Positions 4,473-35,114 of a stretch of 64,000 bases of DNA are shown in pieces. Every line of letters starts with the position of its first letter. Position 1 is the first letter of the stretch. A program made the translations under genes and the position numbers. The notes beneath the pieces were generated by a model, which saw only the letters and a list, made by a program, of their open reading frames with translations, ran no database searches and was not told the DNA's origin. The DNA is from Deltaproteobacteria bacterium (GTDB lineage: Bacteria; Desulfobacterota; GWC2-55-46; UBA9637): positions 6,453-70,452 of the forward strand of contig JACRML010000031.1 in the NCBI GenBank assembly GCA_016214995.1, in the 5' to 3' direction.

Positions 4473-4474
4473 TC

Positions 4475-5911: not shown

Positions 5912-5980
5912 GCATGACATTTAAAGAATTTCTTAAACAAAAAAAAGAGATTGACACAAGCAAGGTTGATCCTATGGATT

Positions 5981-6625: not shown

Positions 6626-6687
6626 ATAGAACATCTTATCTAATAAGGAGAAAATGTCAACCCTTTACAAGTTACCCAAAAATTGTC

Positions 6688-6789
6688 CGATAACGCAGTA
6701 TGGCAGCCAAATCGGCTGGCTCCACTTGCTGCGAAGCAATTGCAAGTGGAAGATGTAAAATAGCGAGGTTTTTAATCGCTACTTTACGG
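6688..6789 (+). repeat. Family A repeat, partial copy A4
   Basis: cgataacgcagtatggcagccaaatcggc, then the ccacttgctgcgaagcaattgcaagtgg hairpin, then the gtaaaatagcgaggtttttaatcgctactttac hairpin. Confidence 0.8.
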
Positions 6790-6820
6790 AATCATATGCT
6801 TTATATGACAAGGCAGTCCA

Positions 6821-6843
6821 GTGTTTTGCCATTGGCAAAACAC
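6821..6843. promoter_or_regulatory. Perfect 23-bp palindrome upstream of dgt (candidate operator)
   Basis: gtgttttgcca-t-tggcaaaacac, 11-bp arms, 20 bp upstream of the dgt start. Confidence 0.3.
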
Positions 6844-6862
6844 ATAATTTATTGAGGGTCAA

Positions 6863-8023: not shown

Positions 8024-8114
8024 AGTTTGTATACAATATGAGTAGGTGCAGAGGTCTGGCACAGGTGACCAGAACAAGGAGTATCTGTATTTTGCCACAG
8101 TGCATAGCCGGCGT

Positions 8115-9227
8115 TTATTTGATTCCAGCTTTAGCAAAGATTTCCTTCAATACACTACGGACAATAGTCTCATAGCTTGAAAAAGATGTTCCTGAGAAAT
8201 TGCCATTAGCTATGATTTCGCCGCTATTTTCATCAATCCATTGCATATTAAATCTTAAAAGGGTGTAATAGAATCCATCCCAGGCATAATTATAGCTATA
8301 GGTAAGCAAAATCCTCCTGTTTTGTCTGGGCGTGGCAGCACTTTTTGGAGTGTCACTGTCATTGACTGCAATCAAGGCAGTGGCCTCTATCGCATCCTCC
8401 AGTGAAACCACATCCGATGTTTTGGTGTCTATTGATTTTCTGATATCATCATTAAATAGCGCTGCGGCGTAATTAATCTTTATTCCAAAATTCACATTTT
8501 GAGGAACGGTCCCTGTTTTTTTAAGCGTATATAAATCAGAAAGTTTTTCCGTTGCAATGCCTATTACATGAAATTTTTCATTTAAAATAGGCCCTCCGCT
8601 ATTTCCGGGTTGAATGGCAGCTGAAACCTGGAAACGTGTTGGATTATCCATGAGCCCTACATCGGCAGAGACTATACCCTCAGTGACCCTCGGATGTTTT
8701 CCCAATAAATCTATGAGTGGAAAACCTACTACTTTTATGTGGTCGCCAATTTTTACATTCTCACTCTGATCCAGCCGCATCCATTTGAGCACTTTTATAG
8801 GCTCAAGCGGCTTCAATATTGCAATGTCGTTTTCTTCGTCTATGATTATAACTCTGGACTTGAAACTCTCACCATCCACTTTTTTGATAATAATAGCAGA
8901 GGAATCCTTCACTACATGGAGATTGGAAATAAGCATGCCATCTTCAGAAATGAAGAATCCGCTTCCAAATGCTAGTGTCAGTTTTGGCTCGTGTTCCTGC
9001 ATCTTTTGATTAGAATGAAAAGTTTGGATGCTGAATCCCAGTTTACTCAGTTCTTCTGATATTATAGGGGCAACGCCTATCGGGTCGTTTTTGTTTGATA
9101 CAATAAAGGTCGTGTCCTTGGTTGTGATATTATCTGTGGTCACATAGGCAGTCATAGTGCAACCGTCAATTATTACCGTAGAAAAAAATAACAAAACGGC
9201 ACATACAAAACGCGACAACTCTTTCAT
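8115..9227 (-). CDS. Trypsin-like serine protease lipoprotein (S1C-like)
   Basis: Triad context SNLHVV, NDIAILK, GNSGGPILN. Lipoprotein signal ...VIIDGC if started at MKELS. The ORF track extends to 9299. Confidence 0.7.
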   Translation of the reverse strand: MKELSRFVCAVLLFFSTVIIDGCTMTAYVTTDNITTKDTTFIVSNKNDPIGVAPIISEELSKLGFSIQTFHSNQKMQEHEPKLTLAFGSGFFISEDGMLISNLHVVKDSSAIIIKKVDGESFKSRVIIIDEENDIAILKPLEPIKVLKWMRLDQSENVKIGDHIKVVGFPLIDLLGKHPRVTEGIVSADVGLMDNPTRFQVSAAIQPGNSGGPILNEKFHVIGIATEKLSDLYTLKKTGTVPQNVNFGIKINYAAALFNDDIRKSIDTKTSDVVSLEDAIEATALIAVNDSDTPKSAATPRQNRRILLTYSYNYAWDGFYYTLLRFNMQWIDENSGEIIANGNFSGTSFSSYETIVRSVLKEIFAKAGIK

Positions 9228-9295
9228 TATCAGGATGCCGCATTTATAGAGTCTGAAATCTGATATGGGATTTGCTGTTGTGCGAATCATAATAA

Positions 9296-9338
9296 TCAAA
9301 AAGAAAAGGGGCTAGCTAATATTATTTGCTAACCCCTT
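9296..9338 (-). terminator. Rho-independent terminator after tRNA-Phe
   Basis: Stem aaggggttagc/gctagcccctt (10 of 11 bp) followed on the minus strand by a T-rich run, cttttcttttt. Confidence 0.55.
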
Positions 9339-9346
9339 GATATTCA

Positions 9347-9422
<76 letters not shown>

Positions 9423-19874: not shown

Positions 19875-21563
19875 TGTGAGGGGGAAAGGGGGTTTTGTTA
19901 CATTTCGCAACTCTACGGAAATACTAAAGGCCTTAAAACAGACCAGTTAAGAAGACTACAGCATATTTACCGCCGCCGTATTCCACCCAACCTGTTCATT
20001 ACTCCGGAATTAGGAAGATACCTTACAGAACTTTCCAGAGACATAGGCAGACAAATAGGTGTTATCGTTAATCGTCAGGGTTTTGTTGTCTGTGCCATTA
20101 TCGGCGATGAAAAAGAGATTGTCATCCCTATTCTTTCTGATTATCCGCTTGGCAGAAAGCGCCTCAGGGGCGTGCGCTGCATACACACGCATCTCAAAAA
20201 TGAACCTTTAAGCCAGGATGACCTTACAGACCTTGCCTTGCTGAGGCTGGATATGATGGCTGCCATCGGTGTTCTGGAAGACGGCCTGCCAGGCAATATT
20301 TATATGTCTCATCTTTTGCCGTTAAACCCTGAAGGCAAAACCTTTGAAACTCATCCGGCGATGCCGTTTCACAGGCTGGATTTAAAAGCAGACGAGTTTG
20401 TTGAGGCTCTGGAAGATGAGATGGGCAGGGCCATAGTAAGGGATGTCCAAGATAAAAGGGAAAGGGCAATCCTTGTAAGCGTATCAACAAAAAACAATAG
20501 AAGAGAAGAACAAATAGAATCCATGGAAGAACTTAAAGAACTGGCGCGCTCCGCAGATGTAGTTGTGCTGGATGCAATCATACAGAGGCCAAAGGAGTTT
20601 AACCCGAAATACCTCATGGGCAGCGGAAAACTGAAAGAGCTTGTCATAAATGCCCTTCAAAAAGAGGCAACCCTCATCATATTTGACCAAGAACTTACCT
20701 CTACGCAAATGCGCGAGATAGGCGAGATTACAGAGTTAAAGGTAATTGACAGGGCGCAGCTTATCCTTGACATATTTGCCAGAAGGGCGTTTTCTCGGGA
20801 CGGCAAGGTGCAGGTGGAACTGGCTCAGTTGAAATACCGTTTTTCAAAATTGACCGGCAAAGGCACTGCCATGTCAAGGCTTGCAGGCGGCATAGGCGGA
20901 AGGGGGCCGGGTGAGACGAAGCTGGAGGTTGACAGGCGCCGGGTGCAGGATAAAATCAGCCATCTTGAAAAACAGCTCAAACATTTAAGCAGGGGCAGAC
21001 TTGAGAGAAGGCGAAGCAGAAGAGACAGCGGTGTTCCCATAATATCCGTTGTTGGTTACACAAATGCAGGCAAATCCACGCTCCTCAATGCGCTCACAAA
21101 AAGCGAGACAAAGGTGGAAAACCTACTTTTTGCAACACTTGATACTGCCTCCAGAAGATTAAGATTTCCAAGAGAGAGGGATGCAGTTATTACAGATACA
21201 GTGGGTTTTATACGGCATCTGCCCGAAGACCTGCTCAAGGCATTCAAGGCAACGCTTGAGGAGATGCAGGATGCTGATTTGCTTATACACCTCGTTGATG
21301 TGAGCAATCCCAATTTTGAAAAACAGATGAAGGTAGTGGAAGATGTGTTGAGCGAGATAGGGCTTGACGCCATAGAAAGGCTTCTTGTGTTTAATAAAGA
21401 GGATAGGGCCGACCCTGAGATAGTTAAAAACCTTTGCAGACGATATAATGCAATATCTATTTCAGCTATATACACTGATACATTGAGGAAGCTGTTGGGT
21501 GTGCTTGAACAAAAGCTTTGGCCGAAAGATAGTGCAGAAACAATGGTTGCCAGCTTGGAATGA
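19875..21563 (+). CDS. hflX: GTPase HflX (long form)
   Basis: G domain VVGYTNAGKSTLLNAL, DTVGFI, NKED. HflX N-domain GKVQVELAQLKY, GPGETKLE. An open in-frame extension runs up to GTG 19875. The ORF track starts at GTG 20172. Confidence 0.8.
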   Translation, partial: CEGERGFCYISQLYGNTKGLKTDQLRRLQHIYRRRIPPNLFITPELGRYLTELSRDIGRQIGVIVNRQGFVVCAIIGDEKEIVIPILSDYPLGRKRLRGVRCIHTHLKNEPLSQDDLTDLALLRLDMMAAIGVLEDGLPGNIYMSHLLPLNPEGKTFETHPAMPFHRLDLKADEFVEALEDEMGRAIVRDVQDKRERAILVSVSTKNNRREEQIESMEELKELARSADVVVLDAIIQRPKEFNPKYLMGSGKLKELVINALQKEATLIIFDQELTSTQMREIGEITELKVIDRAQLILDIFARRAFSRDGKVQVELAQLKYRFSKLTGKGTAMSRLAGGIGGRGPGETKLEVDRRRVQDKISHLEKQLKHLSRGRLERRRSRRDSGVPIISVVGYTNAGKSTLLNALTKSETKVENLLFATLDTASRRLRFPRERDAVITDTVGFIRHLPEDLLKAFKATLEEMQDADLLIHLVDVSNPNFEKQMKVVEDVLSEIGLDAIERLLVFNKEDRADPEIVKNLCRRYNAISISAIYTDTLRKLLGVLEQKLWPKDSAETMVASLE

Positions 21564-21623
21564 TATATCTTGAACAAAGGGGTCTATTGTTTAAGGAGTA
21601 TCTGCTATTTCAACATATACCGA

Positions 21624-22373
21624 TTATGTTTTGCATGCCTTATGAAATGCCACTGTTCCGCCCAAAATGGAGCGGCCAATGATATTGGAATAACCCAGCT
21701 CCAACAGCACGTGGGAGAGCTCCTCTGTAGAGTAAAACATGCGGATAGACTGGATAAAGTAGGGCTGACATTTCAAAGATGTTGACCCACTACGGAAAGC
21801 CCTGGCAATAAGGGGCAAACAGGCCTTCAAGTAAAGGCAGTAAATTTCTTCTATAAATTTGTTTGCCGGTCTTAACATATCGCAGTGGTAAAAATAGCCG
21901 CCGGGTTTAAGCACCCGTTTGATTTCAGAGAATACCTTTATAACACGCAAATGCCGTGTCGCCCATTGTAGCGTCACAACGTCAAAATAATTGTCGGGAA
22001 ACGGCAAATGATGCACATCACTGATTAGACCGTTGATATGAAAGCCATGACGTTGGGCAAGGTTTCTGCCGACTTTCTGCATTGCAATACTTCTGTCCAC
22101 TGCATAAACAGTTAGATTTTGCTGTTTTTTTAAAAGCTTAATGCCAATGGCATTAGTACCGGCGCATACATCCAGAACCTTGTAATCGGGCTTAATATCA
22201 ATGGTGGAGATAAAGCGGCTGCGCAAGCTGTTCATAAGACCCAGGCTGGCGAAAATGTTTGCTCGGTCGTAATAAGCTGCAACATCGGAAAACACTGCGT
22301 CAAGGTCGTTATTCCAAATAGACTCAAACGCCTTTTTGCGTGCGTTTTCTTTCTCCATATAACTGCAATTCAT
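21624..22373 (-). CDS. Class I SAM-dependent methyltransferase, UbiE/MenG-like
   Basis: 249 aa. VAAYYDRANIFASLGL..., SAM motif VLDVCAGTNAIG, post-I D (AVDRS). Confidence 0.7.
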   Translation of the reverse strand: MNCSYMEKENARKKAFESIWNNDLDAVFSDVAAYYDRANIFASLGLMNSLRSRFISTIDIKPDYKVLDVCAGTNAIGIKLLKKQQNLTVYAVDRSIAMQKVGRNLAQRHGFHINGLISDVHHLPFPDNYFDVVTLQWATRHLRVIKVFSEIKRVLKPGGYFYHCDMLRPANKFIEEIYCLYLKACLPLIARAFRSGSTSLKCQPYFIQSIRMFYSTEELSHVLLELGYSNIIGRSILGGTVAFHKACKT

Positions 22374-22487
22374 ACTGATTCCTTTTCCAGCCAGAGAATT
22401 GGCATATATTATTTCCTTTTGGCTAACAAATTATTATACGGTTTCTGTGTAATATCAGAGCCAAATCATAAAGTCAAGGCGTTATAA

Positions 22488-22670
22488 CGTAAAATAGCGA
22501 TTGAAACACTCGCTATTTTACAAACCTGCGATTTGCCTGCCATACTTCGTTATCGGTCAATTTTTACTCCTCACCGTATCGGTGAACATACGGCTCGTCT
22601 CAAAAATTGGCGCTGCCTCGTCTGGCAGCCAACTTGCAGGTTTCCCCAAAAATCAATATCTATTTTTGGG
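22488..22670 (-). repeat. Family A repeat, copy A2
   Basis: Reverse orientation of A1. Lacks the cccctctcgagagggg module. Confidence 0.85.
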
Positions 22671-22987
22671 ACTGTAATACAAGAGTGGCAGATATTGTAG
22701 AATTTATATCTATTATTTCATGGTAGCATTATTTTATGAGTGATAGACAGAATTGTAGGATGGACTATGCCCACCATCTCTGGCTTCGGTTGGCGCAATC
22801 CATCCTACGGCTATGACAAATAAGGGATAGCCCCCCCCTTCTTCACACCGGCACCATTTTAGTACTCATTGAAGAAATTGTCGAATTCGATTTCAACAGC
22901 ACTATGGTGCCGACCCCCGGTCTGCGTTACCGCTGAAAAATAATCCAGCCTGCCAAACCTACTGTTGTAATAATATCAAACAATCTC

Positions 22988-23016
22988 TTGACAGATAATC
23001 ATACCTATGATAGATT
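22988..23016 (+). promoter_or_regulatory. Candidate sigma70 promoter of the XRE-DUF4065 operon
   Basis: TTGACA (22988-22993), 17-nt spacer, TAGATT (23011-23016). GGGGAGGG SD before ATG 23041. Confidence 0.4.
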
Positions 23017-23040
23017 AATGTTATTAAGGGGAGGGCTGCG

Positions 23041-23829
23041 ATGAGCATATACGAAAAAATAGGGTGTCGGATTAAAATGCTTAGGGAAAAGACCGGCATG
23101 AGCCAGGATATGCTGTCACAGAAGATTGGAATATCACGGCCTGCTGTTTCCAAAATAGAGAGCGGTGAGCGGAAAATCTCCGCATACGAGTTGCAAAAGC
23201 TTTCTCATATTTTCCATGTTTCAGTGGACGATTTGTTGAATCCGGTAAAAGAGCCGGAGGTTCATTTGCATAAAGGCAAGGAAGGGAAAACAGCCAGGCC
23301 GCAAATGCGGATTAGCGTGCCGCAGAAGAATCTCCAGAAATTCAAGGAAATTCTGTTGTACATTTTGAATAAGGTCGGGGCCAAAGAGAACATCGGCGAA
23401 ACTGTCATCTATAAACTCCTCTATTTCATAGACTTTGACTTCTATGAAAAATATGAGGAGCAACTGATCGGCGCAACATACATCAAAAACAAATACGGCC
23501 CCACGCCTGTCGAGTTTGCCAAAATCGTAGAGAAAATGATTGAAGGCAAAGAGATAGAGAAGGTCAAAAGCGAATATTTCAATTTTCCGCAGACCAAGTA
23601 TTTGCCTTGTCGGAAGCCTGACCTGGCGAAATTGAAGGCGAACGAGATTGAGGTGATAGACGATGTCCTGAACCGGCTTTCGGAGATGAATGCGAGTCAG
23701 ATAAGCGCCTATTCCCATAGCGATGTTCCATGGGTGACAACGGCGGATGGCGAGGCTATCGAATACGAATCGGTCTTTTACCGCACTTTGCCCTATTCTG
23801 TGCGGGCATATGCGGAAGAGAACGGATGA
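23041..23829 (+). CDS. XRE-family HTH fused to a DUF4065 (SocA/Panacea-type) antitoxin domain
   Basis: N-terminus LREKTGMSQDMLSQKIGISRPAVSKIESGERK. C-terminus KLLYFIDFDFYEKYEEQLIGATYIKNKYGPTP... Confidence 0.75.
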   Translation: MSIYEKIGCRIKMLREKTGMSQDMLSQKIGISRPAVSKIESGERKISAYELQKLSHIFHVSVDDLLNPVKEPEVHLHKGKEGKTARPQMRISVPQKNLQKFKEILLYILNKVGAKENIGETVIYKLLYFIDFDFYEKYEEQLIGATYIKNKYGPTPVEFAKIVEKMIEGKEIEKVKSEYFNFPQTKYLPCRKPDLAKLKANEIEVIDDVLNRLSEMNASQISAYSHSDVPWVTTADGEAIEYESVFYRTLPYSVRAYAEENG

Positions 23830-24074
23830 GTGAGCCATTCTACAGTCCATTCGTTAGGACGCTGTTCAAGAAGATATCTCATGCCCCGGAATTTGAAAAA
23901 GACATGAAGAGGCTTAAGCGATTCTCATCGATAGAAGAGGATTTGCGGTGGAAGGGGATAGATTCAGCAGGGATGGGGAAGGGTAAAGGGGTTGGGGTTG
24001 CGAGGGGGAGGGGAATAGATCAGGCTCGTATTTTCTGTTTTAGCTATAGAATAAGTTGGTACTTTGATATATAG
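23826..24074 (+). pseudogene. Truncated RelE/ParE-like toxin, 3' part replaced by repeat R3a
   Basis: ATGA overlap with the upstream antitoxin. The first 37 or so codons (..FEKDMKRLKRFSSIEEDL) resemble RelE/ParE N-termini. From about 23953 the frame reads through G-rich repeat sequence (GMGKGKGVGVARGRG). Confidence 0.5.
23953..24014 (+). repeat. G-rich post-toxin repeat R3, partial copy R3a
   Basis: Matches the 3' half of R3b and R3c: cagcaggga.ggggaagggtaaaggggttg.ggttgcgaggg. Confidence 0.8.
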
Positions 24075-24080
24075 TGAAAG

Positions 24081-24161
24081 CAATAAATAACTTGTAGGGC
24101 AAGCCTTCAGGCTTGCTTATTTGCAGGGCTAAAGCCCTGCCCTACACCAAGTTATTTATTG
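24081..24161. other. 81-nt three-way-junction palindrome
   Basis: Perfect 14-bp outer stem caataaataacttg/caagttatttattg. 6-bp tagggc/gcccta stem. Two inner hairpins, aagcc..ggctt and cagggc..gccctg. Confidence 0.7.
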
Positions 24162-24209
24162 CCGTTAGTATAGAATAGAGAAAAAATTAATAATGTAGGG
24201 GGGATTTAT

Positions 24210-24395
24210 ATGAGAACCGCGGCACAAAAAGTTAATCCAGAGGATTTTATCCTTTCTGCCCTTTCTCCAGAGGATCGGCTCGATGCGGCATTTGAGGTCG
24301 CTCGTGAGGCGTTCAAAAAGACACGCTTGACAATGAAAGATATTGACAATGCGGTTAAATCGGTAAGGAGAAAGGCTTACGAAAAGAAGAAATAA
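24210..24395 (+). CDS. Small putative antitoxin of the downstream PIN toxin
   Basis: 61 aa. No family firmly recognised. Position and size fit a type II antitoxin. Confidence 0.5.
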   Translation: MRTAAQKVNPEDFILSALSPEDRLDAAFEVAREAFKKTRLTMKDIDNAVKSVRRKAYEKKK

Positions 24396-24414
24396 AGTAG
24401 TCATAGACACAAGC

Positions 24415-24801
24415 GTGCTTATTTCTGCCTACGCCTTTGGTGGAACACCGGAGAAGGCTGTAAAGAAGGCGTTCTCAGAGGCAGACATATATTTAACCCC
24501 CGACCTTTTAAAGGAATACCGTGATGTCCCTTTGGCGCTTGAGGCAGAGGGAAAGATTAACCACCTGCAATTTAAGACCTTGATTTCAGGGATGGCAGCC
24601 GTTGTATCAAGAGCCGAGATTGTAAATCCAAAAAGAAAAATCCTGATATGTAGAGACCCGAAGGACGATATGTTGCTTGACTGTTGCATTGAAGCAAAGG
24701 CAGATTTTCTTGTCACAGGCGATGCTGACCTTCTTAATATCGCAGAATTGCCGTTTAATTTAAGGATAGTAACTCCACTCAAATTTCTCGAAGAAGGGTA
24801 G
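24415..24801 (+). CDS. PIN-family toxin (PIN_3/TIGR00305-like)
   Basis: DPKDDMLLDCCIEAKADFLVTGDADLL is the typical C-terminal PIN_3 motif. The conserved VVIDTSV segment is encoded in frame upstream of the first canonical start (GTG 24415). Confidence 0.75.
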   Translation: MLISAYAFGGTPEKAVKKAFSEADIYLTPDLLKEYRDVPLALEAEGKINHLQFKTLISGMAAVVSRAEIVNPKRKILICRDPKDDMLLDCCIEAKADFLVTGDADLLNIAELPFNLRIVTPLKFLEEG

Positions 24802-24814
24802 TCTATTCCCACCG

Positions 24815-24948
24815 GATGTAAAAACGATGAATGAAGAGGGCAATCGTAGGGTGGGCATTGCCCACCGGATGAGGAAGATAGAAGGGCTGATGGAGAGGTT
24901 CAGCAGGGACGGTGAAGGGTAAAGGGGTTGTGATTGCAAGAGGTGGGG
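24815..24948 (+). repeat. G-rich post-toxin repeat R3b
   Basis: Roughly 85 percent identical by eye to R3c over about 135 bp. Contains the ggtgggcattgcccacc palindrome and a G-run tract. Starts about 13 nt after the PIN stop. Confidence 0.85.
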
Positions 24949-24996
24949 AAATAAATGAGTCCGCTTCTTCAAAAAAAAGCTAAGTGGAGGTATTTG

Positions 24997-25266
24997 ATGA
25001 AAATAGTAAGCGAACACATAGACAAGATTGTAGCAATCGGCAAGCGGTATGGCGCTACCCGTCTGATATTGTTCGGGGGAGTGGTCGCAAGATCGGAAAA
25101 TACAAGAGATATTGATATAGCATGCGATGGCATCCCAGGCTGGAAGCTTTATGAATTTGCAGCAAGACTTGAAGAGGAGCTGCATATTCCTCTCGATGTA
25201 ATGCCGCTCAGCCCTCCGAGTCGTTTTACAAAATACATTGAGATGAAAGGCAAGGCGCTCATATGA
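24997..25266 (+). CDS. Nucleotidyltransferase-domain antitoxin (MntA-like)
   Basis: LILFGGVVARSENTRDIDIA (GG..x..DxD NTase signature). GGAGG lies 6 nt upstream of ATG 24997. ATGA overlap with the HEPN gene. Confidence 0.75.
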   Translation: MKIVSEHIDKIVAIGKRYGATRLILFGGVVARSENTRDIDIACDGIPGWKLYEFAARLEEELHIPLDVMPLSPPSRFTKYIEMKGKALI

Positions 25267-25736
25267 ATCTGAAAGACCTTTGCGAGGAAATTGCCATTGA
25301 GATTGAGCTTCTCGAATCCGTCATCAAAGAAATATCTTCCCTGCGCAACGACTTAACGGAGCGTGAGCCAACTATCAGGGAAAAAACAGCCGCAGGCGCC
25401 TTTATGGCACAATTTTACGGAGGGATTGAAAACATTTTGAAACGGATCAGCTTGTTCCACTCTGTTCCAATGCCTTCCGGCGACAACTGGCACACAGATC
25501 TTTTCCGAAGATTTTGCCAACCATCTTACCAAACCCTGCCTCTATTATTTAAGGAACAACTGGCCTTAGACATGGCCGCATTTCGTAAATTCAGGCATGT
25601 TGTTTATCACGGCTACGGTTTTGAACTTGACTGGGACAGGATGAAAGAAGGGTTGGCAAGAATTGATGATGTATTTAACCGTTTTAAACAGAAACTTAAC
25701 GAATATCTAAATGGGTTAGAAAAACAGAATAAATAG
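25263..25736 (+). CDS. HEPN-domain toxin (HepT-like)
   Basis: 157 aa. Rx4-6H motif in FRKFRHVVYHGYG. Paired with the MNT gene. Confidence 0.7.
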   Translation: MNLKDLCEEIAIEIELLESVIKEISSLRNDLTEREPTIREKTAAGAFMAQFYGGIENILKRISLFHSVPMPSGDNWHTDLFRRFCQPSYQTLPLLFKEQLALDMAAFRKFRHVVYHGYGFELDWDRMKEGLARIDDVFNRFKQKLNEYLNGLEKQNK

Positions 25737-25748
25737 CCGATACCGTCA

Positions 25749-25890
25749 AATGCGGAAACGATGATGGAAGAGGGCAAAAAGTTGTAGGGTGGGCTATGCC
25801 CACAGGATGAGAGAGATAGAAGGGCTGAGGGGAGAGGTTCCGCAGGGACGGGGAAGGGTAAGGGGGTTGGGATTGCGAGGGTGGAGGGGG
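25749..25890 (+). repeat. G-rich post-toxin repeat R3c
   Basis: Homologous to R3b. Starts about 13 nt after the HEPN stop. G-runs ggggaagggtaagggggttgggattgcgagggtggaggggg. Confidence 0.85.
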
Positions 25891-26017
25891 ATTTTATAAT
25901 TTCATACATGGATAAACGAGGCGACTAATGCAAATTTGAAGGTGATTGAAAGACTGATAAAACACTCATCAAAGCAATGAGATAAAGGCTGCAATAGCTA
26001 TTGTTTTAATATAAAAT

Positions 26018-29000
26018 ATGCCTGAACAAATGGATACTACCTGCAAAAAACCTCAGCCTGCTTTACTTGAAGATGTCTGGATAACATCAGGCATTTTTTC
26101 AAACCATTATCTATTAGAACGTCTGCCGCAGGCTGGAGCAAAAATCTGGCATAAAGATGAGGATGTACTGCCAGTATATAAAACCATTCAGGAATTATAC
26201 ACGAAAAATATTGTAGGTTTGAGAAGAGGTAATGAGGCAAATACCGAAAGGCGATTTATTGATAAGGTTTTTAATGAATTGGGTTTTGGCTATCTTAATC
26301 AGGATAAAATACCTGAAGCAGAGCGCAGACAGGTGCCTGATTACTTTCTTTACTCTACCCCCGAAGGTGCAGACAATGCCTTCAAACTCTCTCCGCATAA
26401 AAAATACAAACTTGCAATCTCAATTGTAGAATCAAAACGGTGGGATCATAATTTAGACCAGCCGTCATCAGGCAAGGGCAAGGCAACTAAAGGCGGGTAT
26501 CCGCATCAGCAGATAAGGGATTATCTAAACGAATCCGAACACATAAAATGGGGAATCCTTACCAATGGCAAGGAGTGGAGGCTCTATTCCAAAGAGGGGC
26601 GGTCAAGCAAATTTTTTGAGATAGACCTTGAGGCATGTCTTGAAGACCTTCAGAAGTTCAAATATTTCTATCTCCTTTTCAGCCCAAATGCCTTCATAAA
26701 GGAAAGTTCCGGCAGATGTCTCCTTGACAATATTTTTGACGAATCACTTAAGTTTCAGGAAGATGTTGAAAAAGACCTAAGAGTAAAGGTCTTTAACTGT
26801 GTTGAACGGCTTGGGTACGGCTTCCTGTCCAGAGAGGAAAACCGTTTATCTGAAAAAGACCTTGAATCAATATACTATCACAGCCTTATCCTTTTATATA
26901 GAATACTCTTTGTGCTTAATGCAGAGGCAAGAGACCTCCTTCCAACTAACCCACAAACAAATTACTACAAGCATTACGGCATCCAGAGGATAAAGGATAG
27001 GGTTAGGCATGGGAAAGGAGAATTTATAAGTGCCAAAACAGTTTTGTATGATGATTTATCAGCCCTTTTTCATCTGATAAACGGCAGCAATGAAAAACTC
27101 AATAGAGATATGAACATACCAAGATATAACGGCGGTCTTTTTGACCCTGATAAATATAAATTCCTTGAAGAAAAGAAGGCAGGAGACGATGTTCTTTCAG
27201 AGATAATTTATGAACTCTCCAACCGCACTGATAAAAATGGAGATGTCCATAGCATTGACTACAAAGGGCTTGGAGAGAGACATCTTGGAACAGTTTATGA
27301 AGGTTTGCTTGAACATAAGTTTAGTTTCGATAATGGTAAAGTAGTTCTTGAAAATGACAAAGGCGAACGAAAGGCTACAGGGGCATACTATACACCTGAC
27401 CATATTGTTAAGTATATCGTTGAAAATACGCTAGTGCCAATTATAAAGAAAATTGATGAAGAACTTTACCCCACTTTGAAAAAGGGGGGCGTGGGGGGAT
27501 TTTCAAAAGACGACTTTTTTGCCCAGGAAGTGCTGAACCTTAATATCTGCGACCCTGCGATGGGTTCAGGGCATTTCCTTGTCGAGGCTGTTCAATATCT
27601 TGCTGATGAGATTGCCTATCATCCCACAACACAGTTAAAGACGTCAAAAGGCGAAACAGAAGATGAAATTAACTATTGGAAGCGTAAGGTTGTAGAGTCC
27701 TGCATTTATGGAGTTGACATAAAAGAACTTGCAGTTGAACTTGCAAAACTCTCCTTATGGCTTAAGACAGTTGACAAAAGCCAGCCGCTAAATTTCTTAG
27801 ACCATCATCTCAGATGCGGCAATTCGCTTATCGGCGCAAGGATAGCCGACTTAAATTATCTGCCGCGGTCAAAGGGAAAGCAGAAAAAGACAGAGGAGAA
27901 TGAAAGCCAGTTGGTGCTTTTTGATAGAACCCGATTTAAAGAAGACATTACAACAGTAATAAAAGGATTTTATTCAATAGAAGAAATGCCGAGCGAAAAA
28001 ATTTCGGATATAAAGGCAAAGGAAAAGACATTCAAAAAATTGACCGAAGAACTGAATAGATACAGAGAAATTACAGACCTCTGGACAAGTTTGTTTTTTG
28101 GAAACAGCCTTGAACAAGAACAAGAGGCATTTGAAAACATTATACAAGAGCAGGATAAATTCCAGATGGATATATTCGGCTCAGAAACTAAAATCTCCCC
28201 CAAAAAGAAGTCCAAGGCAGGCATATCCAACCAGATTTACAATTTTATAGTTAGTTCACTACAAAGTCCTAACGGCAAAACCCAAGTTCCAAAACTTGAC
28301 TTGCTTCTTGGGAAGTCTGTATCCATTGCAAGGGAAAAGAAATTCTTTCACTGGGAACTTGCATTTCCTGAAGTATTCTTCAATGAAGACGGAAGTCCAA
28401 AAGAGAATCCGGGGTTTGATTGCGTAATAGGAAATCCGCCGTATGATGTTTTATCAGAACTTGAGCAGGAGAGGGATGTAGAGCATGAGAAAGAATTTTT
28501 CTTGCATCAGATGTCGTATAGACCTGCCATTGGCAGCAAACTTAATTTTTATCGCCTCTTTAGTGTCACATCTTTAAATTTACTCAAAAGCAAAGGTATG
28601 CATGGTTTTATCGTTCCTATGGCTTTATTAGCAGATAAACAAGCAAAGCCCTTGAGAGAATTTATACTTAAAAAGAACTGCCTGCAAAAGATAGAAGCAT
28701 TTCCCCAAAAAGATGACCCTGTAAACAGGGTATTTTATGAGGCAAAGTTATCAACCTGCATATATATCCTTTCTAAGCAAAAGCCATTTTCGTTTGATGT
28801 TAGAATCCATCCCGGAAAAGACATCTTGGAAACCTCTACTCGTTTAACCATAATGCCATCTCAAATTGAAGAATTTGACAAAGAAAATTTAAGTATTCCA
28901 TGTTATCCAAATATGACCGCAGAGGATTTTAAACTTGCCTTGAAATTAAACGAAGTTTCTAACGGAATTACACTCGGATACTTTGCGCCATCACAGCAGG

Positions 29001-29959
29001 GCGAGGTTAATCTTACAGCACACTCTGAATATTTGACAAATTCAGAAAAAGGACAAATTATTTTACGAGGTGCTCATATAAATCGTTATGAGTTTAAGGA
29101 AGAACCAAAACAAGGGAGTCCGATGTATCTTGATATTCAGCGATTCCTTGATGCACATGGAGAAGATACAAAAGCATTTGACCACAGGCACATACGCATC
29201 GGTTATCAAAGAGGGGCAGCAATAGACAATTGGCGCAGAATTATTGCAACTGTCATAGAAAAAGATAATTTCTGCTCCGATACAATCAACTATATTGTCA
29301 ATCCTAAAGAATATAGTCTGTTTTCCATTCTTGCATTATTAAATTCATCGCTATGGGAGTGGAGATTCAGGCTTACAAGCACAAACAATCATGTAAATTC
29401 TTATGAAATAGACTCAATGCCAATGCCAGTTATCTCCTTCACCACTCCCCCCAAAAGGGCGGAAGAATTTTTTAAGGATGCTGTTGAACTGTATGATGAT
29501 TCAAAATATGTTGATATTTTCAAATGGGCGGATTATGCATTGGATTTGGGCAGGAATGATACCATTCACGACTTCCTTGCCTATCTTGCAGAGCAGATAA
29601 TTGAGTTAAACAAGGCGAAGAATGAAGAGAGCAAAGGCTTTCTCAAATGGCTTGAAAGGGAAATCGGTACAGGAATTGATGCCTTAACAAACAAAACTGC
29701 AATCAAAGAATATCACGAACACGGCTTTGATCATCTCCTTGAAGTCCTCAAAAAGAACATAAACATAATCTCAATTGACCCTTCAGACCGAAAGAAACAG
29801 GAACTCGTTGAAAAGCATTTCACAAAAAGCATGTCAGTCCTTGAGCCTCTGAAAGAAAAAATTAAGGCGGCCGATAATCTGATAGACCAGATTATTTATA
29901 AGTTGTATGGATTGACGGAGGAGGAGATTGAGATTGTGGAGGGGAAAGTGACTTTATGA
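26018..29959 (+). CDS. Type IIG/IIL-like fused restriction endonuclease and N6-adenine DNA methyltransferase (Eco57I family)
   Basis: 1313 aa. N-terminal PD-ExK (VPDYFLY...IVESKRW), GAYYTPDHIV, SAM motif I DPAMGSGHFLVEA, motif IV GNPPY. TaqI-C-like TRD (LLNSSLWEWRF). C-terminal YKLYGLTEEEIEIVEG. Confidence 0.85.
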   Translation: MPEQMDTTCKKPQPALLEDVWITSGIFSNHYLLERLPQAGAKIWHKDEDVLPVYKTIQELYTKNIVGLRRGNEANTERRFIDKVFNELGFGYLNQDKIPEAERRQVPDYFLYSTPEGADNAFKLSPHKKYKLAISIVESKRWDHNLDQPSSGKGKATKGGYPHQQIRDYLNESEHIKWGILTNGKEWRLYSKEGRSSKFFEIDLEACLEDLQKFKYFYLLFSPNAFIKESSGRCLLDNIFDESLKFQEDVEKDLRVKVFNCVERLGYGFLSREENRLSEKDLESIYYHSLILLYRILFVLNAEARDLLPTNPQTNYYKHYGIQRIKDRVRHGKGEFISAKTVLYDDLSALFHLINGSNEKLNRDMNIPRYNGGLFDPDKYKFLEEKKAGDDVLSEIIYELSNRTDKNGDVHSIDYKGLGERHLGTVYEGLLEHKFSFDNGKVVLENDKGERKATGAYYTPDHIVKYIVENTLVPIIKKIDEELYPTLKKGGVGGFSKDDFFAQEVLNLNICDPAMGSGHFLVEAVQYLADEIAYHPTTQLKTSKGETEDEINYWKRKVVESCIYGVDIKELAVELAKLSLWLKTVDKSQPLNFLDHHLRCGNSLIGARIADLNYLPRSKGKQKKTEENESQLVLFDRTRFKEDITTVIKGFYSIEEMPSEKISDIKAKEKTFKKLTEELNRYREITDLWTSLFFGNSLEQEQEAFENIIQEQDKFQMDIFGSETKISPKKKSKAGISNQIYNFIVSSLQSPNGKTQVPKLDLLLGKSVSIAREKKFFHWELAFPEVFFNEDGSPKENPGFDCVIGNPPYDVLSELEQERDVEHEKEFFLHQMSYRPAIGSKLNFYRLFSVTSLNLLKSKGMHGFIVPMALLADKQAKPLREFILKKNCLQKIEAFPQKDDPVNRVFYEAKLSTCIYILSKQKPFSFDVRIHPGKDILETSTRLTIMPSQIEEFDKENLSIPCYPNMTAEDFKLALKLNEVSNGITLGYFAPSQQGEVNLTAHSEYLTNSEKGQIILRGAHINRYEFKEEPKQGSPMYLDIQRFLDAHGEDTKAFDHRHIRIGYQRGAAIDNWRRIIATVIEKDNFCSDTINYIVNPKEYSLFSILALLNSSLWEWRFRLTSTNNHVNSYEIDSMPMPVISFTTPPKRAEEFFKDAVELYDDSKYVDIFKWADYALDLGRNDTIHDFLAYLAEQIIELNKAKNEESKGFLKWLEREIGTGIDALTNKTAIKEYHEHGFDHLLEVLKKNINIISIDPSDRKKQELVEKHFTKSMSVLEPLKEKIKAADNLIDQIIYKLYGLTEEEIEIVEGKVTL

Positions 29960-32481
29960 ATTTTGAACGACCGCAACCCTTACATAAAAATATTGAAGTC
30001 AAAGCAACCAATAGGCCCATTAAAATTGCTTACCTTGTTCCATATGAAGAAAGTATAACTACACATAGGATACTTGATGCGGTTTTCCATGAATCATATA
30101 CCCGCTGGGGTGGTGTTCATACATTAATTATTCCTACTAATAGCAACAGTTTTTTGTTGGAAGAATACGATAAGTGGCTGCAATTTTATGACCCTGATTT
30201 TATTTATACATATGTTGATTTAGAACAGTCAGTGATTGCAAAAATAGATCACGCTTGTTGTCCTATCGCATTCATAAGTCACAAAAAATCAGAAATAACC
30301 CGATGGCAGGATTACATACCCGACTGGGGGGTATATTTCAAATCGATTTCATCGCTAACAACAATACATAGCCCATATGCTGGTTATCGTAGCCTACTAC
30401 CGTGGACTGAAAAAGAACAGAAAATAACACTTATTACCCAATACAAAGAAATTTCTGAAGAGCGTTTTATCGCTGATAACTTTGGAACTGCCTTTAATTT
30501 ACATATGTATCCTAACCCTATACAAGGGCTTTTTGATACTCTCTGTTTAGTGCCAAATGATTTGGGTAAGCATATGCATGTAGGTACTACAAAAACCACC
30601 TCAATTATAGATATACTTTCTCAAATAAGCGGCAAAAAAGCTATTATGATTGCAAAACTATCAATGGCTTACAGCAAATCTATATGCTGTGTGCAATCTT
30701 ATAGGTGGGATAGTTTCAACCTCTTTGTTGGAGATACTTGTCTTGATCGAATTCATTTCTGGAATGCAAGAAGTTTTTCTCCGGATTATATCAACGTGCC
30801 AGCCGCACTTATTGTAAAAAAGATACAGATAGAAGAATCAGATTTTATTACTCAGCTAGGCTTGTATCTAAATAGTCATAATTTTTTAGGGCAACATACT
30901 GGCCAGGCTTCAGTAGCAATAAGGAGCTTTAGCCACAACATTGAAGAACTCAAGCCGATACAAGAGAGATTACAAAAATGCACCTTCAATCGTGTGATTT
31001 TAACAAATGAATATAATAACCCTGCAATTCCATCTACCGACGATTTCAAACACTATTATCATAGTGGGTCTGCAGATGTAACGACATTTAAGTTAAGCGA
31101 AACTATTAATAAAATACAGGCGAAGGAGCCCGAACATTTTGCGTTCACTCCACCACGATTTAGAGGAATAAATGAAGGTCAGTGGATTGTCGAGCTTGAA
31201 ATTGAACGCCACAATAGCCTTTCTCGTGTTGTCAATGTTGCTGATACTTGGATGCCGCCACGGCGTCATAAAGCAGTAAGAGCATTTACTAAAAATTTGG
31301 GGAGGATTTCAAAAAACCATAGAATTTCTCTTATACCATCAACAGATAACCATCCATTATTGAGTAGCCCAATTAAAAAGGACTACTCATACTCCCTCTT
31401 TTTGCCGGATGATGAAACTTTTTTTCGATGGTTCGCCATCGATGCGGTTAATTATCTAAAAGAAGATTTACGGTCTTCACTTTCCTATGACCTATACAAT
31501 GGTTTGTCTGTCTCCGATAAAGGGCAAAATTTAAGAGGTGTAATTTCTATGTTTGGCAATCTTTCTGATGCATCTGAATGCTTGACCAATAAGTTTTGGC
31601 GTCAGATTATAAGAGCAAACAAGAGCAAGGTGGATGATGAAAAAGATGCCCAAAGACCAGATAATATTTTCAGTTGGGATAAATTGTTCTCTTTTATACC
31701 AAATGACCATAAATTTAAAGAGCAGCTACGGAAAAAATTACGCATTGGAAACAGGTTTAAAATACATGATTACTTGGTTGCAGACTTCAATGACGCGTTG
31801 GAATTTCTGATTAACAAAAAAGTTTTCTATCAGGTGCATCAGTGGAGGTGTTCATATTGCGGGCATACAAATACGCTTACCTTTGATCATATTAAAAGAA
31901 CAAATAATTGTGAGATTTGTGATAAGGAATATTTTGCACCGATTGATATTGAGTGGAAGTATAAACTTAATGACTTTGTATATAAATCATTATGTGAGCG
32001 TAACGGACTGACTGTTTTGTGGGCGTTGGGTCATTTACAAGAACGGGATGTGCATAGCAGTTTTTATTACCTTCCAGAAGTTAATTTGTTTTTAGAACAT
32101 AATAATTCAGAGAAAAAGCATGAAATAGATATTTTATGCATGATAGGTGGAAAGTTTTATGCTGTAGAAGCTAAATTTAGTTCAACCGGTTTTACTAAGA
32201 AACATGATGAGATTGAAAAGTTCATTAAGAAAATCTCATTAATCAGACCCGATGTCGCTCTATTAGCATTTGAACAGTATTGTGAACCTGAAGCTGATAC
32301 GGAGTCTGCCAAGAAGGATTTGAAAGGAGTGGTTGCAGATATATCTCAGAAAATAGGGGAGCAAATAAAAATTGAAACGGTAGTTGCATCTGATTTCGAA
32401 GAATTTAATGAGTATCCTGTTGATTTAGGTTGTTGGGGCAAACGTGTTTTAAAGATGCTTTATAAACTCGACAGCAAATAA
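29956..32481 (+). CDS. Uncharacterised 841-aa protein with a C-terminal zinc ribbon and PD-(D/E)xK-like nuclease signature
   Basis: ATGA overlap with the methyltransferase stop. CSYC-x16-CEIC at aa 632-655. HEIDILCMIGGKFYAVEAK at aa 722-740 (E-x-D...E-x-K). No Walker A or other motif recognised in aa 1-630. Confidence 0.8.
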   Translation: MNFERPQPLHKNIEVKATNRPIKIAYLVPYEESITTHRILDAVFHESYTRWGGVHTLIIPTNSNSFLLEEYDKWLQFYDPDFIYTYVDLEQSVIAKIDHACCPIAFISHKKSEITRWQDYIPDWGVYFKSISSLTTIHSPYAGYRSLLPWTEKEQKITLITQYKEISEERFIADNFGTAFNLHMYPNPIQGLFDTLCLVPNDLGKHMHVGTTKTTSIIDILSQISGKKAIMIAKLSMAYSKSICCVQSYRWDSFNLFVGDTCLDRIHFWNARSFSPDYINVPAALIVKKIQIEESDFITQLGLYLNSHNFLGQHTGQASVAIRSFSHNIEELKPIQERLQKCTFNRVILTNEYNNPAIPSTDDFKHYYHSGSADVTTFKLSETINKIQAKEPEHFAFTPPRFRGINEGQWIVELEIERHNSLSRVVNVADTWMPPRRHKAVRAFTKNLGRISKNHRISLIPSTDNHPLLSSPIKKDYSYSLFLPDDETFFRWFAIDAVNYLKEDLRSSLSYDLYNGLSVSDKGQNLRGVISMFGNLSDASECLTNKFWRQIIRANKSKVDDEKDAQRPDNIFSWDKLFSFIPNDHKFKEQLRKKLRIGNRFKIHDYLVADFNDALEFLINKKVFYQVHQWRCSYCGHTNTLTFDHIKRTNNCEICDKEYFAPIDIEWKYKLNDFVYKSLCERNGLTVLWALGHLQERDVHSSFYYLPEVNLFLEHNNSEKKHEIDILCMIGGKFYAVEAKFSSTGFTKKHDEIEKFIKKISLIRPDVALLAFEQYCEPEADTESAKKDLKGVVADISQKIGEQIKIETVVASDFEEFNEYPVDLGCWGKRVLKMLYKLDSK

Positions 32482-32561
32482 AAAACATTATTTTTTAAGA
32501 TGATACAATAAAAAAGAGCACATCGTTCTTCAGGCAGAGGGCGGGAGAGTGATGAGAATAA

Positions 32562-32954
32562 TTGACCAAAAAAACTCAAAAACTTTTAGATGAGTTAAGA
32601 GTCTTGCCTGCTGAAACCGAATGGGTATGGTTTAATAGGAAGTTGAGAAATGAGCGGCATTTCCAGATTTATAACTTTGATGACGGTCAACCGATTGAGC
32701 CTGACTTTGTTCTATTTCTCAAAAAGAAAGATTCGGATATTTCACTGCACTATCAAGTGTTCATTGAACCGAAAGGTGAGCACCTTTTAAAATATGACGA
32801 ATGGAAAGAGAACTTTTTAAAATCATTGAAAAAGAAGCATCAGATAAATATATTATGGAAATCAAAAAAATACACTGTATGGGGAATGCCTTTCTATAAT
32901 GAGGCGTTAAAGAAAACCGAATTTGAAGATGAATTCAGGGCTGCACTGTTATAG
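32562..32954 (+). pseudogene. Remnant of the C-terminal nuclease domain of a type III-restriction-like helicase/endonuclease
   Basis: 130 aa with a TTG start. W.WFNRK...F.I.Y...G..IEPDFVLFL...QVFIEPKGEHL is the PD-ExK tail normally found at the end of roughly 900-aa ResIII helicases. No helicase part is present. Confidence 0.5.
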
Positions 32955-33090
32955 GATAATGATGAAAAACCAGCCGCAACCCTTAACCATCCAGTCTGCC
33001 AAAACCGCCCACTAAAGGGCGCTCCTCGACAGGTTGGTTATGGGCTTTATGGGTTGACAAAGGAAGAGATAAGTATTGAAAACTACCCAT
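32955..33090 (+). pseudogene. Relic of a methyltransferase C-terminus
   Basis: Open frame ...APRQVVGYGLYGLTKEEISIE... mirrors the YKLYGLTEEEIEIVEG ending of the intact enzyme. No start and no upstream domain. Confidence 0.4.
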
Positions 33091-33132
33091 CTCCTGAAGG
33101 GGATAGGTATATTACAAAAGGAGGGTTATTTT

Positions 33133-33312
33133 ATGAAGAATATTGATATGCAGATTCAGGGAGACATGCTCACCATCAAAGTAGATTTAAAAAAGGAGTT
33201 TGGTCCCTCTGCTTCCGGTAAGACTACAATAATTGCAACTACCGAAGGTAATGTTACAGCGCCTGAGCATGAGAATATTAAGATAGGAATAAACGTGTAT
33301 AGGAAAAAGTAA
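33133..33312 (+). CDS. Small conserved-looking hypothetical protein (59 aa)
   Basis: AAGGAGGG about 7 nt upstream of ATG 33133. MKNIDMQIQGDMLTIKVDLKKEFGPSASGKTTIIATTEGN... The ORF-track start at 33076 lies in the methyltransferase relic. Confidence 0.55.
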   Translation: MKNIDMQIQGDMLTIKVDLKKEFGPSASGKTTIIATTEGNVTAPEHENIKIGINVYRKK

Positions 33313-33320
33313 TAAACCAG

Positions 33321-33376
33321 AAAATGTATTTGGCCAAAGATTGCGTTTGCCAAAAAATGTAACTTCATTTTTTGGG
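33321..33376 (-). repeat. MITE-like element, 5'-terminal fragment (about 55 bp)
   Basis: Reverse complement cccaaaaaatgaagttacattttttggcaaacgcaatctttggccaaata matches the left end of the copies at 44240 and 59129. Confidence 0.75.
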
Positions 33377-33387
33377 TAAAGGAACGT

Positions 33388-34059
33388 ATGGACGAGATTA
33401 AAATAGACAAGGTAATAAGGTCTCATAGAAAAACTATTGCCCTTGTAATAACACAAGATACTGCACTTGTGGTGCGCGCCCCTTTCTTTACACCGCTTGA
33501 ATACATTCAGAAGTTGATTGAGAGAAAACGTTTCTGGATAAATAGGAAGCAGGAAGAGATAAGGAAAAGACCGATAGTAAAGCCAAAGGAATTTGTCAGC
33601 GGCGAGGTTTTTTTGTTTTTGGGGAGGAGCTATAAACTTGAGATTGTAGATGGTTTACAATCCGACATTGAGTTAAGGGATACTCTGCAGATTTCAAGAA
33701 CCAGATTGCCCGTAGCAAAGGAAACGTTGATCGCATGGTACAAGGAACGCGCCCTTGAAAAAATAAGGGAACGTTGCGAATGGTATGCAAAGCTGACCGG
33801 ATACAAGCCAACATCAATAAAGATTACCGGCGCTAAAAGGAGATGGGGCTCTTGCGGACCAAGAGGAACGCTCAATTTTAGCTGGCGGCTTATCATGACA
33901 CCGCTTGAAGTGGTGGATTATGTGGTAGTCCATGAATTGGTTCATCTGGAAGAAAAAAGTCATGCAAAAAAGTTTTGGAGCAAAGTAAAAACCATTCTTC
34001 ACGATTATGAGAAAAGGGAGAGGTGGTTGAAGGAAAATAAGGCAGCGGTTATTTTATAG
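33388..34059 (+). CDS. DUF45/YgjP-type (M48-like) zinc metallopeptidase
   Basis: 223 aa. HExxH in VVVHELVHLEEKSH. WGSC...LNFSWRL is typical of DUF45. Confidence 0.8.
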   Translation: MDEIKIDKVIRSHRKTIALVITQDTALVVRAPFFTPLEYIQKLIERKRFWINRKQEEIRKRPIVKPKEFVSGEVFLFLGRSYKLEIVDGLQSDIELRDTLQISRTRLPVAKETLIAWYKERALEKIRERCEWYAKLTGYKPTSIKITGAKRRWGSCGPRGTLNFSWRLIMTPLEVVDYVVVHELVHLEEKSHAKKFWSKVKTILHDYEKRERWLKENKAAVIL

Positions 34060-34076
34060 GTGTTAGACCCTGAATA

Positions 34077-35114
34077 TCAGGCAGGGCGTGTTAACCCCGA
34101 CACCTTCACCCCGACAAGCCTTACCTCTTTTTGAAAATCTATTTTGTTCAGCACCCATAAAGCTGCTGTCCATATATCATTGAAGGAATCGGTTGGCTCT
34201 TCCATTGTCTTTGCCCTTGTTATGGTGTGGAAGTCTTTGTAGCGAATCTTCAGGGTTACGGTTTTTGCTTTGTATTTATCATATTTCATTCCGTCCACCA
34301 CATCCTTTGCAAGCTCAAACAAGGTCTCTTTTATGAGATACAAATCCCTTGTATCTTCCTGAAATGTAACCTCTCTGGAAAATGAGCTTGGTTCATAAAA
34401 CGGCACAACAGGGCTATCATCCATGCCGTGAGAGTATTCATAGAGCATCCTTCCAAAGGATTTTCCGAAATTTACCTCCAGATGCTGAACAGGGAGCTTT
34501 GCCAATTCACCAATTGTTTTTATACCAAGCTTATGAAGCCTCTTTTCTGTTTTTTCTCCAACCCCCCACAATTTTCTTACAGAGAGAGGGGAAAGTATTT
34601 TGATTATATCCTTTTCCCTTATCACGGTGAAGCCATTGGGCTTATTCATTTCGCTTGCCATCTTTGCCAGAAGTTTATTTGGCGCTATGCCCACCGATGC
34701 TGTAAGGCCAAGCTCCTCCTTAATCCTCTTCTTTATCTCCCTCGCTATATCAAGGGCGCTCTTGCTGCATTCTGTAACATCCATAAATGCCTCATCAAGG
34801 CCGAACGATTCTATGAGCGGCGTGTATTCTCTGATTATTGTTATGAACTTTTCAGATTCGTTTTCATACGCTTCAAAGTCTACCGGCAGAAAGACCGCAT
34901 GAGGGCATCTTTTAGACGCAGTTCTGAGAGGCATACCGGACCTTACCCCAAATTTGCGCGCCTCATACGATGCGGCAGATACAACGCCACGTTTCGTGGG
35001 GTTACCATCGCCGCCCACGATAACGGGCTTGCCTTTTAACTCCGGATGCTTTTTTAATTCTACGGAAGCAAAGAAGGCATCCATGTCTATGTGGATTATG
35101 GAACGGTTTGGCAT
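34077..35114 (-). CDS. dinB: DNA polymerase IV
   Basis: IIHIDMDAFFASVE, Y-family palm, little-finger region. Start chosen at MPNRSIIHID. The ORF is open up to 35168. Confidence 0.9.
   Translation of the reverse strand: MPNRSIIHIDMDAFFASVELKKHPELKGKPVIVGGDGNPTKRGVVSAASYEARKFGVRSGMPLRTASKRCPHAVFLPVDFEAYENESEKFITIIREYTPLIESFGLDEAFMDVTECSKSALDIAREIKKRIKEELGLTASVGIAPNKLLAKMASEMNKPNGFTVIREKDIIKILSPLSVRKLWGVGEKTEKRLHKLGIKTIGELAKLPVQHLEVNFGKSFGRMLYEYSHGMDDSPVVPFYEPSSFSREVTFQEDTRDLYLIKETLFELAKDVVDGMKYDKYKAKTVTLKIRYKDFHTITRAKTMEEPTDSFNDIWTAALWVLNKIDFQKEVRLVGVKVSGLTRPA

Follow-up and report, generated by a model that had tools for sequence, protein, structure and literature searches.

What does a protein do when a nuclease is recognizable at its C-terminus and the 600 or so residues ahead of it match no described domain? 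The question is raised by P0001, an 841-residue protein encoded at positions 29956-32481 (+ strand; open reading frame (ORF) list and translation) of a 64,000-nucleotide stretch of a Deltaproteobacteria bacterium genome (assembly GCA_016214995.1, contig JACRML010000031.1, positions 6,453 to 70,452). This whole stretch is called the window here, and coordinates without a prefix refer to it. The C-terminus of P0001 is a PD-(D/E)xK nuclease with a restriction-endonuclease-like α/β core, which is joined through a zinc ribbon to an N-terminal module without a detectable relative among described domains. P0001 is encoded by a self-contained, horizontally mobile accessory gene that need not be paired with the gene of the adjoining type IIG enzyme, P0002. 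We lean towards reading it as a candidate defense protein, a single-protein sensor-nuclease that would act against invading DNA.

Architecture of P0001 and its family

The full-length protein was modeled with AlphaFold2 (AF2) from 66 sequences (predicted local distance difference test (pLDDT) 86.3; predicted template-modeling score (pTM) 0.84). In this model, residues 1-622 are predicted to form a family-specific module of four subdomains: two Rossmann-like lobes, a β-rich domain, and a helical domain. Subdomain A (residues 13-135; 29992-30360 on the + strand, as for all parts of the gene; pLDDT ~90-97) consists of a β-hairpin followed by a Rossmann-like β-α-β-α-β-α-β lobe and carries R20, Y48, W51, G53, and D79-P-D81. 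The second Rossmann-like α/β lobe, subdomain B (residues 157-350; 30424-31005), carries D174-N-F-G177, G259, D264-R265, and F268-W-N-x-R272. The β-rich subdomain C (residues 351-520; 31006-31515) carries P392, G408-x-W410, R418-HNNLS-423, W432, and P435; both B and C were delimited from the AF2 model and conservation. The helical subdomain D (residues 521-622; 31516-31821; AF2) contains a variable insert, residues 556-600, which is poorly conserved and where relative L006 has an insertion. The zinc ribbon (residues 623-662; 31822-31941) is recognized by four invariant cysteines (C632, C635, C652, and C655) and by weak Pfam matches in many members. The nuclease (residues 663-841; 31942-32481), identified by Foldseek, PADLOC, and conservation, has the motif E723-x-D725...E738-x-K740. 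The sequence reads HEIDILC...AVEAKFS, and the (E)xD...ExK of the PD-(D/E)xK superfamily is thus present.

When the whole model was compared with the Protein Data Bank (PDB) using Foldseek, it matched VC1899 (1xmx; E = 8.7e-5) and entries for Can2 (including 8q43, 7bdv, and 8bao; E = 5e-4 to 7e-3). The top ten included nine Can2 chains, and eight of these were assigned a probability of 0.94-1.0. The target-normalized template-modeling (TM) score of the VC1899 and Can2 matches was only ~0.30, as would be expected if the nuclease domain accounts for most of the match. Pfam's own model of the DUF1887/Card1-type nuclease did not match P0001, and the likeness to Can2 and Card1 is therefore at the level of fold only.

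The N-terminal module behaved differently from the whole protein. A separate AF2 model of residues 1-622 (pLDDT 77.7) gave no significant Foldseek match in the PDB (best E = 0.023, probability ≤0.18, TM ≤0.2) and no significant viral fold in BFVD. The PDB list was a mixture of two-lobe α/β proteins, namely LacI/PBP-I cores, amino-terminal domains of ionotropic glutamate receptors, GT-B proteins, ANL ligases, and HflX. Local 115-residue matches to TOPRIM (probability ~0.6) were considered and rejected. In the TOPRIM fold, strand 3 carries the DxD at its C-terminal end, whereas D79-P-D81 is located in the helix-2 to strand-3 loop (i.e., before strand 3), and the acidic position that follows strand 1 is not invariant.

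Sequence searches gave the same picture. Regular expressions for Walker A/B, DEAD/DExH, the PLD HxK, S-adenosylmethionine motif I, NPPY, and the SIR2 GAGxS motif found nothing anywhere in P0001. With hidden Markov model (HMM) libraries added, signatures of P-loop, helicase, PLD, SIR2, TIR, and methyltransferase proteins were absent from residues 1-630. Pfam, NCBIfam, PADLOC, and PHROGs gave no match within residues 1-575. Among 58 diverse family members, down to 21% identity, none had a Pfam match in the N-region; the scan returned only the zinc ribbon and sub-threshold matches to NERD, UPF0102, Mrr_cat, and PDDEXK_10, all in the C-terminal third. Sequence searches of the PDB with P0001 and two profiles yielded nothing, or merely zinc-ribbon noise. 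No system model in PADLOC-DB 2.0 matched P0001 as a whole protein. The partial matches were to CARF-plus-nuclease models; they were weak and fell only within residues 581-790 (e.g., Csx1 "CARF+nuclease," 2.5e-6, covering residues 581-761). A NERD or zinc-ribbon match was also sought among the HEC systems of Payne et al. (bioRxiv 10.1101/2024.01.29.577857), none of which has the P0001 architecture. The first-pass annotation of this DNA, made from the letters alone, had found no recognizable catalytic or NTPase motif in the N-region, and the empty searches bear it out. Neither structure nor profile searches matched the N-region to any characterized family with confidence.

Parts of the N-terminal module are conserved to the same degree as the nuclease. 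Mean identity in alignment A1 is 58% for subdomain A and 68% for the first part of subdomain D (D1, residues 521-555), compared with 64% for the ribbon and 58% for the nuclease. In a broad 58-sequence alignment, R20, G53, D81, W269, N270, P392, W432, the four cysteines, D725, and E738 are invariant. Nearly invariant residues include D79, F176-G177, G259, D264-R265, S324, G408, R418, S520, G523, G528, and K740, the last being kept in at least 90% of the sequences; the four cysteines and D725/E738/K740 are conserved down to 21% identity. The block near the N-terminus that the first-pass annotation had singled out as the only striking one is indeed conserved (Y48, W51, G53, D79, and D81), but it is neither alone nor the strongest. 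Conservation within the N-region peaks at the motif S520-D-K-G-Q-N-L-R-G528 (31513-31539), and there are further blocks at DNFG 174-177, D264-R265, FWNxR 268-272, and R418-HNNLS-423. Residues 520-527/528 have a pLDDT of ~90 in the full-length model and below 50 in the model without the C-terminus. This loss of confidence suggests that the SDKGQNLRG loop packs on the zinc-ribbon/nuclease part.

A word-based search retrieved 193 full-length homologs of ~830 residues with 44-72% identity, all labeled "hypothetical." When 1.84 billion cluster representatives were searched with an N-region profile built from 16 sequences (alignment A2, residues 1-622), 776 proteins (50%-identity clusters) were found at E ≤1e-3, and 243 of them at E ≤1e-30. 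They include a distant clade with 21-27% identity that aligns over positions 14-558. Of the eight sequences read from end to end, seven are full length, and five of these belong to the distant clade. All seven carry a CxxC...CxxC ribbon followed by an ExD...ExK nuclease at the C-terminus; the eighth is a 704-residue fragment that breaks off just past the zinc ribbon. In both clades, each full-length member examined thus joins the N-module to a ribbon and a nuclease with intact catalytic residues. The best 150 matches of the N-region profile showed no other effector at the C-terminus. Two very distant relatives (L065:1204-2874 and L066:2078-3748) have 23% identity over residues 253-774. The L065 gene is followed by a 1758-residue ORF (4133-9406), and L065 and L066 may represent a separate subfamily with a partner.

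A mobile gene of foreign origin

The GC content of the P0001 gene is 35.9%, compared with a genome mean of 41.8% (standard deviation 2.4, 2.5-kb windows), which places it at the 0.7th percentile. The GC content at third codon positions (GC3) is 30.6% versus 42.3 ± 5.2 (1.5th percentile). The synonymous-codon likelihood score of the gene is not deviant. The compositional anomaly proposed in the first-pass annotation is therefore present in GC and GC3, where it is modest, and missing from codon usage scored by likelihood. The spot counts of 60-nucleotide lines on which that proposal was based proved about right on recounting (28-50% GC in the N-region, ~32-67% in housekeeping genes). Foreign origin, which had been offered as a hint, is supported by the low GC and GC3, by the absence of P0001 from all 40 relatives' genomes searched, by the location of the gene in a variable hotspot, and by the plasmid copies described below.

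Hosts of family members comprise Nitrospirota-type bacteria, Desulfobacterota, Beta- and Gammaproteobacteria, and one Methanobacterium bin. Three members are on plasmids, and one adjoins a RelE toxin-antitoxin pair. On the conjugative plasmid of Burkholderia glumae (NZ_CP100298.1; L091:1426-9502), a member with 24% identity stands directly behind three consecutive genes for tyrosine recombinases plus a small ORF. It is followed by an IS481 transposase and looks like cargo of a recombinase-trio element. No phage record carrying a family member was found, which we counted as neutral. In Legionella drozanskii LLAP-1 (L020:9986-12240) the gene is split into two ORFs (matching query residues 7-451 and 478-758) and its C-terminal end is missing; this copy is probably a pseudogene.

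The two nearest ORFs on each side were scanned at 54 loci (145 ORFs). Mobility genes among them include phage integrases (3), resolvases (2), and a Y2 transposase. Restriction-modification (RM) or defense genes include ResIII (2), a type I restriction endonuclease, type II and type III methyltransferases, Cas1, RmrA, and the PADLOC candidate systems PDC-M11A and PDC-S20. An all-against-all comparison of neighboring ORFs (BLAST and phmmer) revealed no gene common to more than two other loci.

What P0001 may do

If P0001 defends, its N-module would recognize a cue, for which we consider a ligand that binds between the two lobes or some feature of the invader's nucleic acids or proteins. Once the cue is recognized, the module would license the C-terminal nuclease. 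The invariant SDKGQNLRG loop, which seemingly touches the C-terminal part, might relay this licensing and so gate the nuclease allosterically. A sensor role for the N-region, also suggested in the first-pass annotation, is plausible. Shedu (SduA) and Upx likewise combine a variable or unknown N-terminal region with a PD-(D/E)xK effector, stand alone, and are horizontally spread. No PADLOC model of either matches P0001, and its family is only a candidate for defense.

A more specific proposal, which we put forward tentatively and consider rather less probable than defense as such, is that the module of ~560-620 residues is a new infection sensor. It would respond directly to an invader cue within one polypeptide, with no NTPase, cyclase, or partner, and switch on a ribbon-tethered, Can2-like nuclease. 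If this is true, the family would be a widespread class of single-protein immunity that has yet to be named, with at least 776 clusters at the 50% identity level. No part of prokaryotic immunity is understood less well than its sensor domains, and this module is large, conserved, and confidently folded and lacks a relative in Pfam, NCBIfam, PADLOC, PHROGs, the PDB, and BFVD. If the family defends, it would do so with a new trigger and a new mode of gating. Should it have no such role, several hundred clusters on plasmids and genomic islands still lack an annotation and deserve a name. The gene needs no partner and is therefore an easy one-gene construct to test.

Several points weigh against the sensor-nuclease reading. 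The sensor role of the N-module is argued from architecture, and an enzymatic or DNA-reading role would also be compatible with it. The proposed loop contact derives from differences in pLDDT between two models whose underlying alignments differed in depth. Defense-related neighbors are a handful of the 145 ORFs, many neighbors are housekeeping genes, and several loci lie among ordinary metabolic genes.

The main rival, to which we give a minor but real share of the probability, holds that P0001 is a modification- or DNA-feature-dependent (type IV-like) restriction enzyme whose N-region reads DNA and guides the nuclease to DNA that is marked or foreign. Like solitary type IV enzymes, P0001 stands by itself in RM-rich islands, and most loci have no cognate methyltransferase. 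RM-rich surroundings recur (in the window; at L093, with an ORF resembling the C-terminal domain of M.Eco57I; and as parts of type I, II, and III systems), and the invariant zinc ribbon adjoins the nuclease. The motif ExD...ExK is common to the NERD, YraN (UPF0102), and Mrr-type nucleases, and several family members match NERD, UPF0102, Mrr_cat, and PDDEXK_10 weakly. All of these matches are below the Pfam thresholds, however, and the N-module is unrelated to known modification readers. No SRA, EVE, YTH, PUA, winged-helix, DUF3427, or similar modified-DNA-reading domain was found by Pfam or by Foldseek (the latter run with the N-only model as a whole), and two Rossmann-like lobes are unusual in DNA readers.

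It is improbable, in our estimate, that P0001 and the enzyme encoded upstream form one two-gene system in which P0001 is an accessory nuclease or sensor. P0002 (26018-29959, + strand) is a type IIG RM enzyme of 1313 residues, resembling MmeI and Eco57I, as judged by Pfam (Eco57I, 7e-30; N6_Mtase; MmeI_Mtase; HSDR_N; TaqI_C) and PADLOC (REase_MTase_IIG, together with DrmMI, which matches the methyltransferase part alone). The arrangement of the two genes is suggestive of a pair: they are on the same strand, the stop of P0002 and the start of P0001 overlap by four bases (ATGA), no terminator-like site lies between them, and they possibly form an operon. The first-pass annotation had called P0001 the "partner protein" of the IIG enzyme. 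This claim found no support when ~60 relatives' loci were gathered and P0002 was sought within 10 kb by BLASTP and phmmer. None of them contains a homolog of P0002 or of the ORF upstream of the L093 member, and no conserved neighbor emerged. Conversely, genomes G003, G004, and G007 encode homologs covering most of P0002 (35-77% identity) and have no P0001, and G005 (P0002 as two separate fragments) and G011 hold only parts of it. The pairing of P0002 and P0001 is therefore a local juxtaposition, not a conserved system. P0002 is in any case self-equipped, with its own PD...ExK nuclease motif (VPDYFLY...IVESK) and a complete, MmeI-like domain set.

Upstream DNA is readable for three close relatives (~72% identity). 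Two of them, L006 and L092, follow housekeeping genes. The third, P0004 (73% identity), is preceded at a distance of 40 bases by an ORF (L093:1-1452) that matches the C-terminal domain of M.Eco57I (E = 4e-6) and so favors a link with IIG enzymes; the hit is borderline (26.8 bits against a cut-off of 27) and the sequence is unrelated to P0002. L093 appears as a second, independent juxtaposition of a family member with an Eco57I-type methyltransferase.

The features that recall MmeI/Eco57I type IIG enzymes and the DISARM component DrmMI all belong to P0002, and P0001 has nothing in common with them. The genes of DISARM encode DrmA (a helicase), DrmB (DUF1998), and DrmC (PLD). None of the three is near P0001, whose neighbors in the window are toxin-antitoxin genes and a YgjP-like peptidase.

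Two further observations concern upstream genes. In G011, which belongs to a different family of the same order, the first 401 residues of P0002 are found at 97% identity (G011:C11:3-1205, locus L072) before the contig end cuts the gene. Since same-genus homologs are only 35-77% identical, this points to a recent horizontal transfer of the RM gene. In a Rhodocyclaceae metagenome-assembled genome (L016:6805-10038), the upstream gene overlaps the family member by ~40 bases. Its product (1024-1078 residues) has Trans_reg_C, AAA_16, and TPR domains and is STAND-like; this pairing was seen in no other locus.

We rate as still more doubtful the idea that P0001 is a second-messenger effector like Can2, Card1, or Cap4, with the Rossmann-like lobes as a divergent nucleotide sensor of the CARF or SAVED type. 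As in Can2, Card1, and VC1899, which supply the best PDB matches to the nuclease fold, a sensor-type N-terminal module and a nuclease share one polypeptide in P0001. The nuclease of those proteins is of the DUF1887-type PD-(D/E)xK class, and P0001 keeps the catalytic D725, E738, and K740. The weak PADLOC matches to CARF-plus-nuclease models point the same way, as do the two lobes. The best of these matches is, however, limited to residues 581-761, and unlike Can2 and Card1, P0001 has no Pfam or PADLOC match to CARF in residues 1-580. Its N-module comprises 620 residues in four subdomains, compared with ~150 residues in Can2, Card1, and VC1899, and the zinc ribbon ahead of the nuclease has no counterpart in them. 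No CARF or SAVED structure is among the 50 best PDB matches of the N-only model. Because the nuclease resembles Can2, nine member-carrying genomes (the Legionella copy being broken) were examined for cyclases. Cmr2/Csm1 (Cas10) was above the cut-off in none of them and a CD-NTase was present in only two, with controls as expected. Unlike Can2, Card1, and VC1899, the P0001 family thus has no link to Cas10 or type III CRISPR, and no signaling gene is a conserved neighbor. A cyclic-nucleotide effector is unlikely, given so few cyclases and no match to a CARF or SAVED fold.

Least probable of all is a non-immune role in mobile-element biology or DNA repair, with the N-region as an undescribed enzyme (GT-B-like or ligase-like) or a repair or recombination factor: a weak, generic likeness to two-lobe proteins (GT-B, ANL, and PBP-I), the occurrence of conserved acidic and basic residues in every subdomain, the loci among housekeeping genes, and the cargo position behind the recombinase trio would agree with it, but all of the fold matches are non-significant, and the patchy distribution, the absence from the 40 relatives, and the pseudogenized copy speak against a core function.

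The island around P0001

P0001 lies in an accessory island at 22400-34060, between a ubiE-like gene and dinB, whose genes were annotated with Pfam. In order, the island contains an XRE-Panacea antitoxin, a PIN toxin, a 103-residue ORF, a HepT toxin, the type IIG RM gene, P0001, a 130-residue remnant, and the YgjP-like peptidase. The 103-residue ORF ahead of HepT has no Pfam match and is MNT-like by position. The interval from hflX to dinB is 12.5 kb in the window (21563-34077), compared with 2.4 kb of unrelated DNA in G007 (L087, G007:C19). In G004, short matches to 22492-22604 and 33339-33379 of the window lie ~750 bp apart after hflX, which suggests an emptier version of the same site. In two same-genus genomes, the dinB homolog contains in-frame TGA codons (two in G003:C54:9054-10100 and one in G001:C268:1804-2835), and it is intact in G004, G005, and G007.

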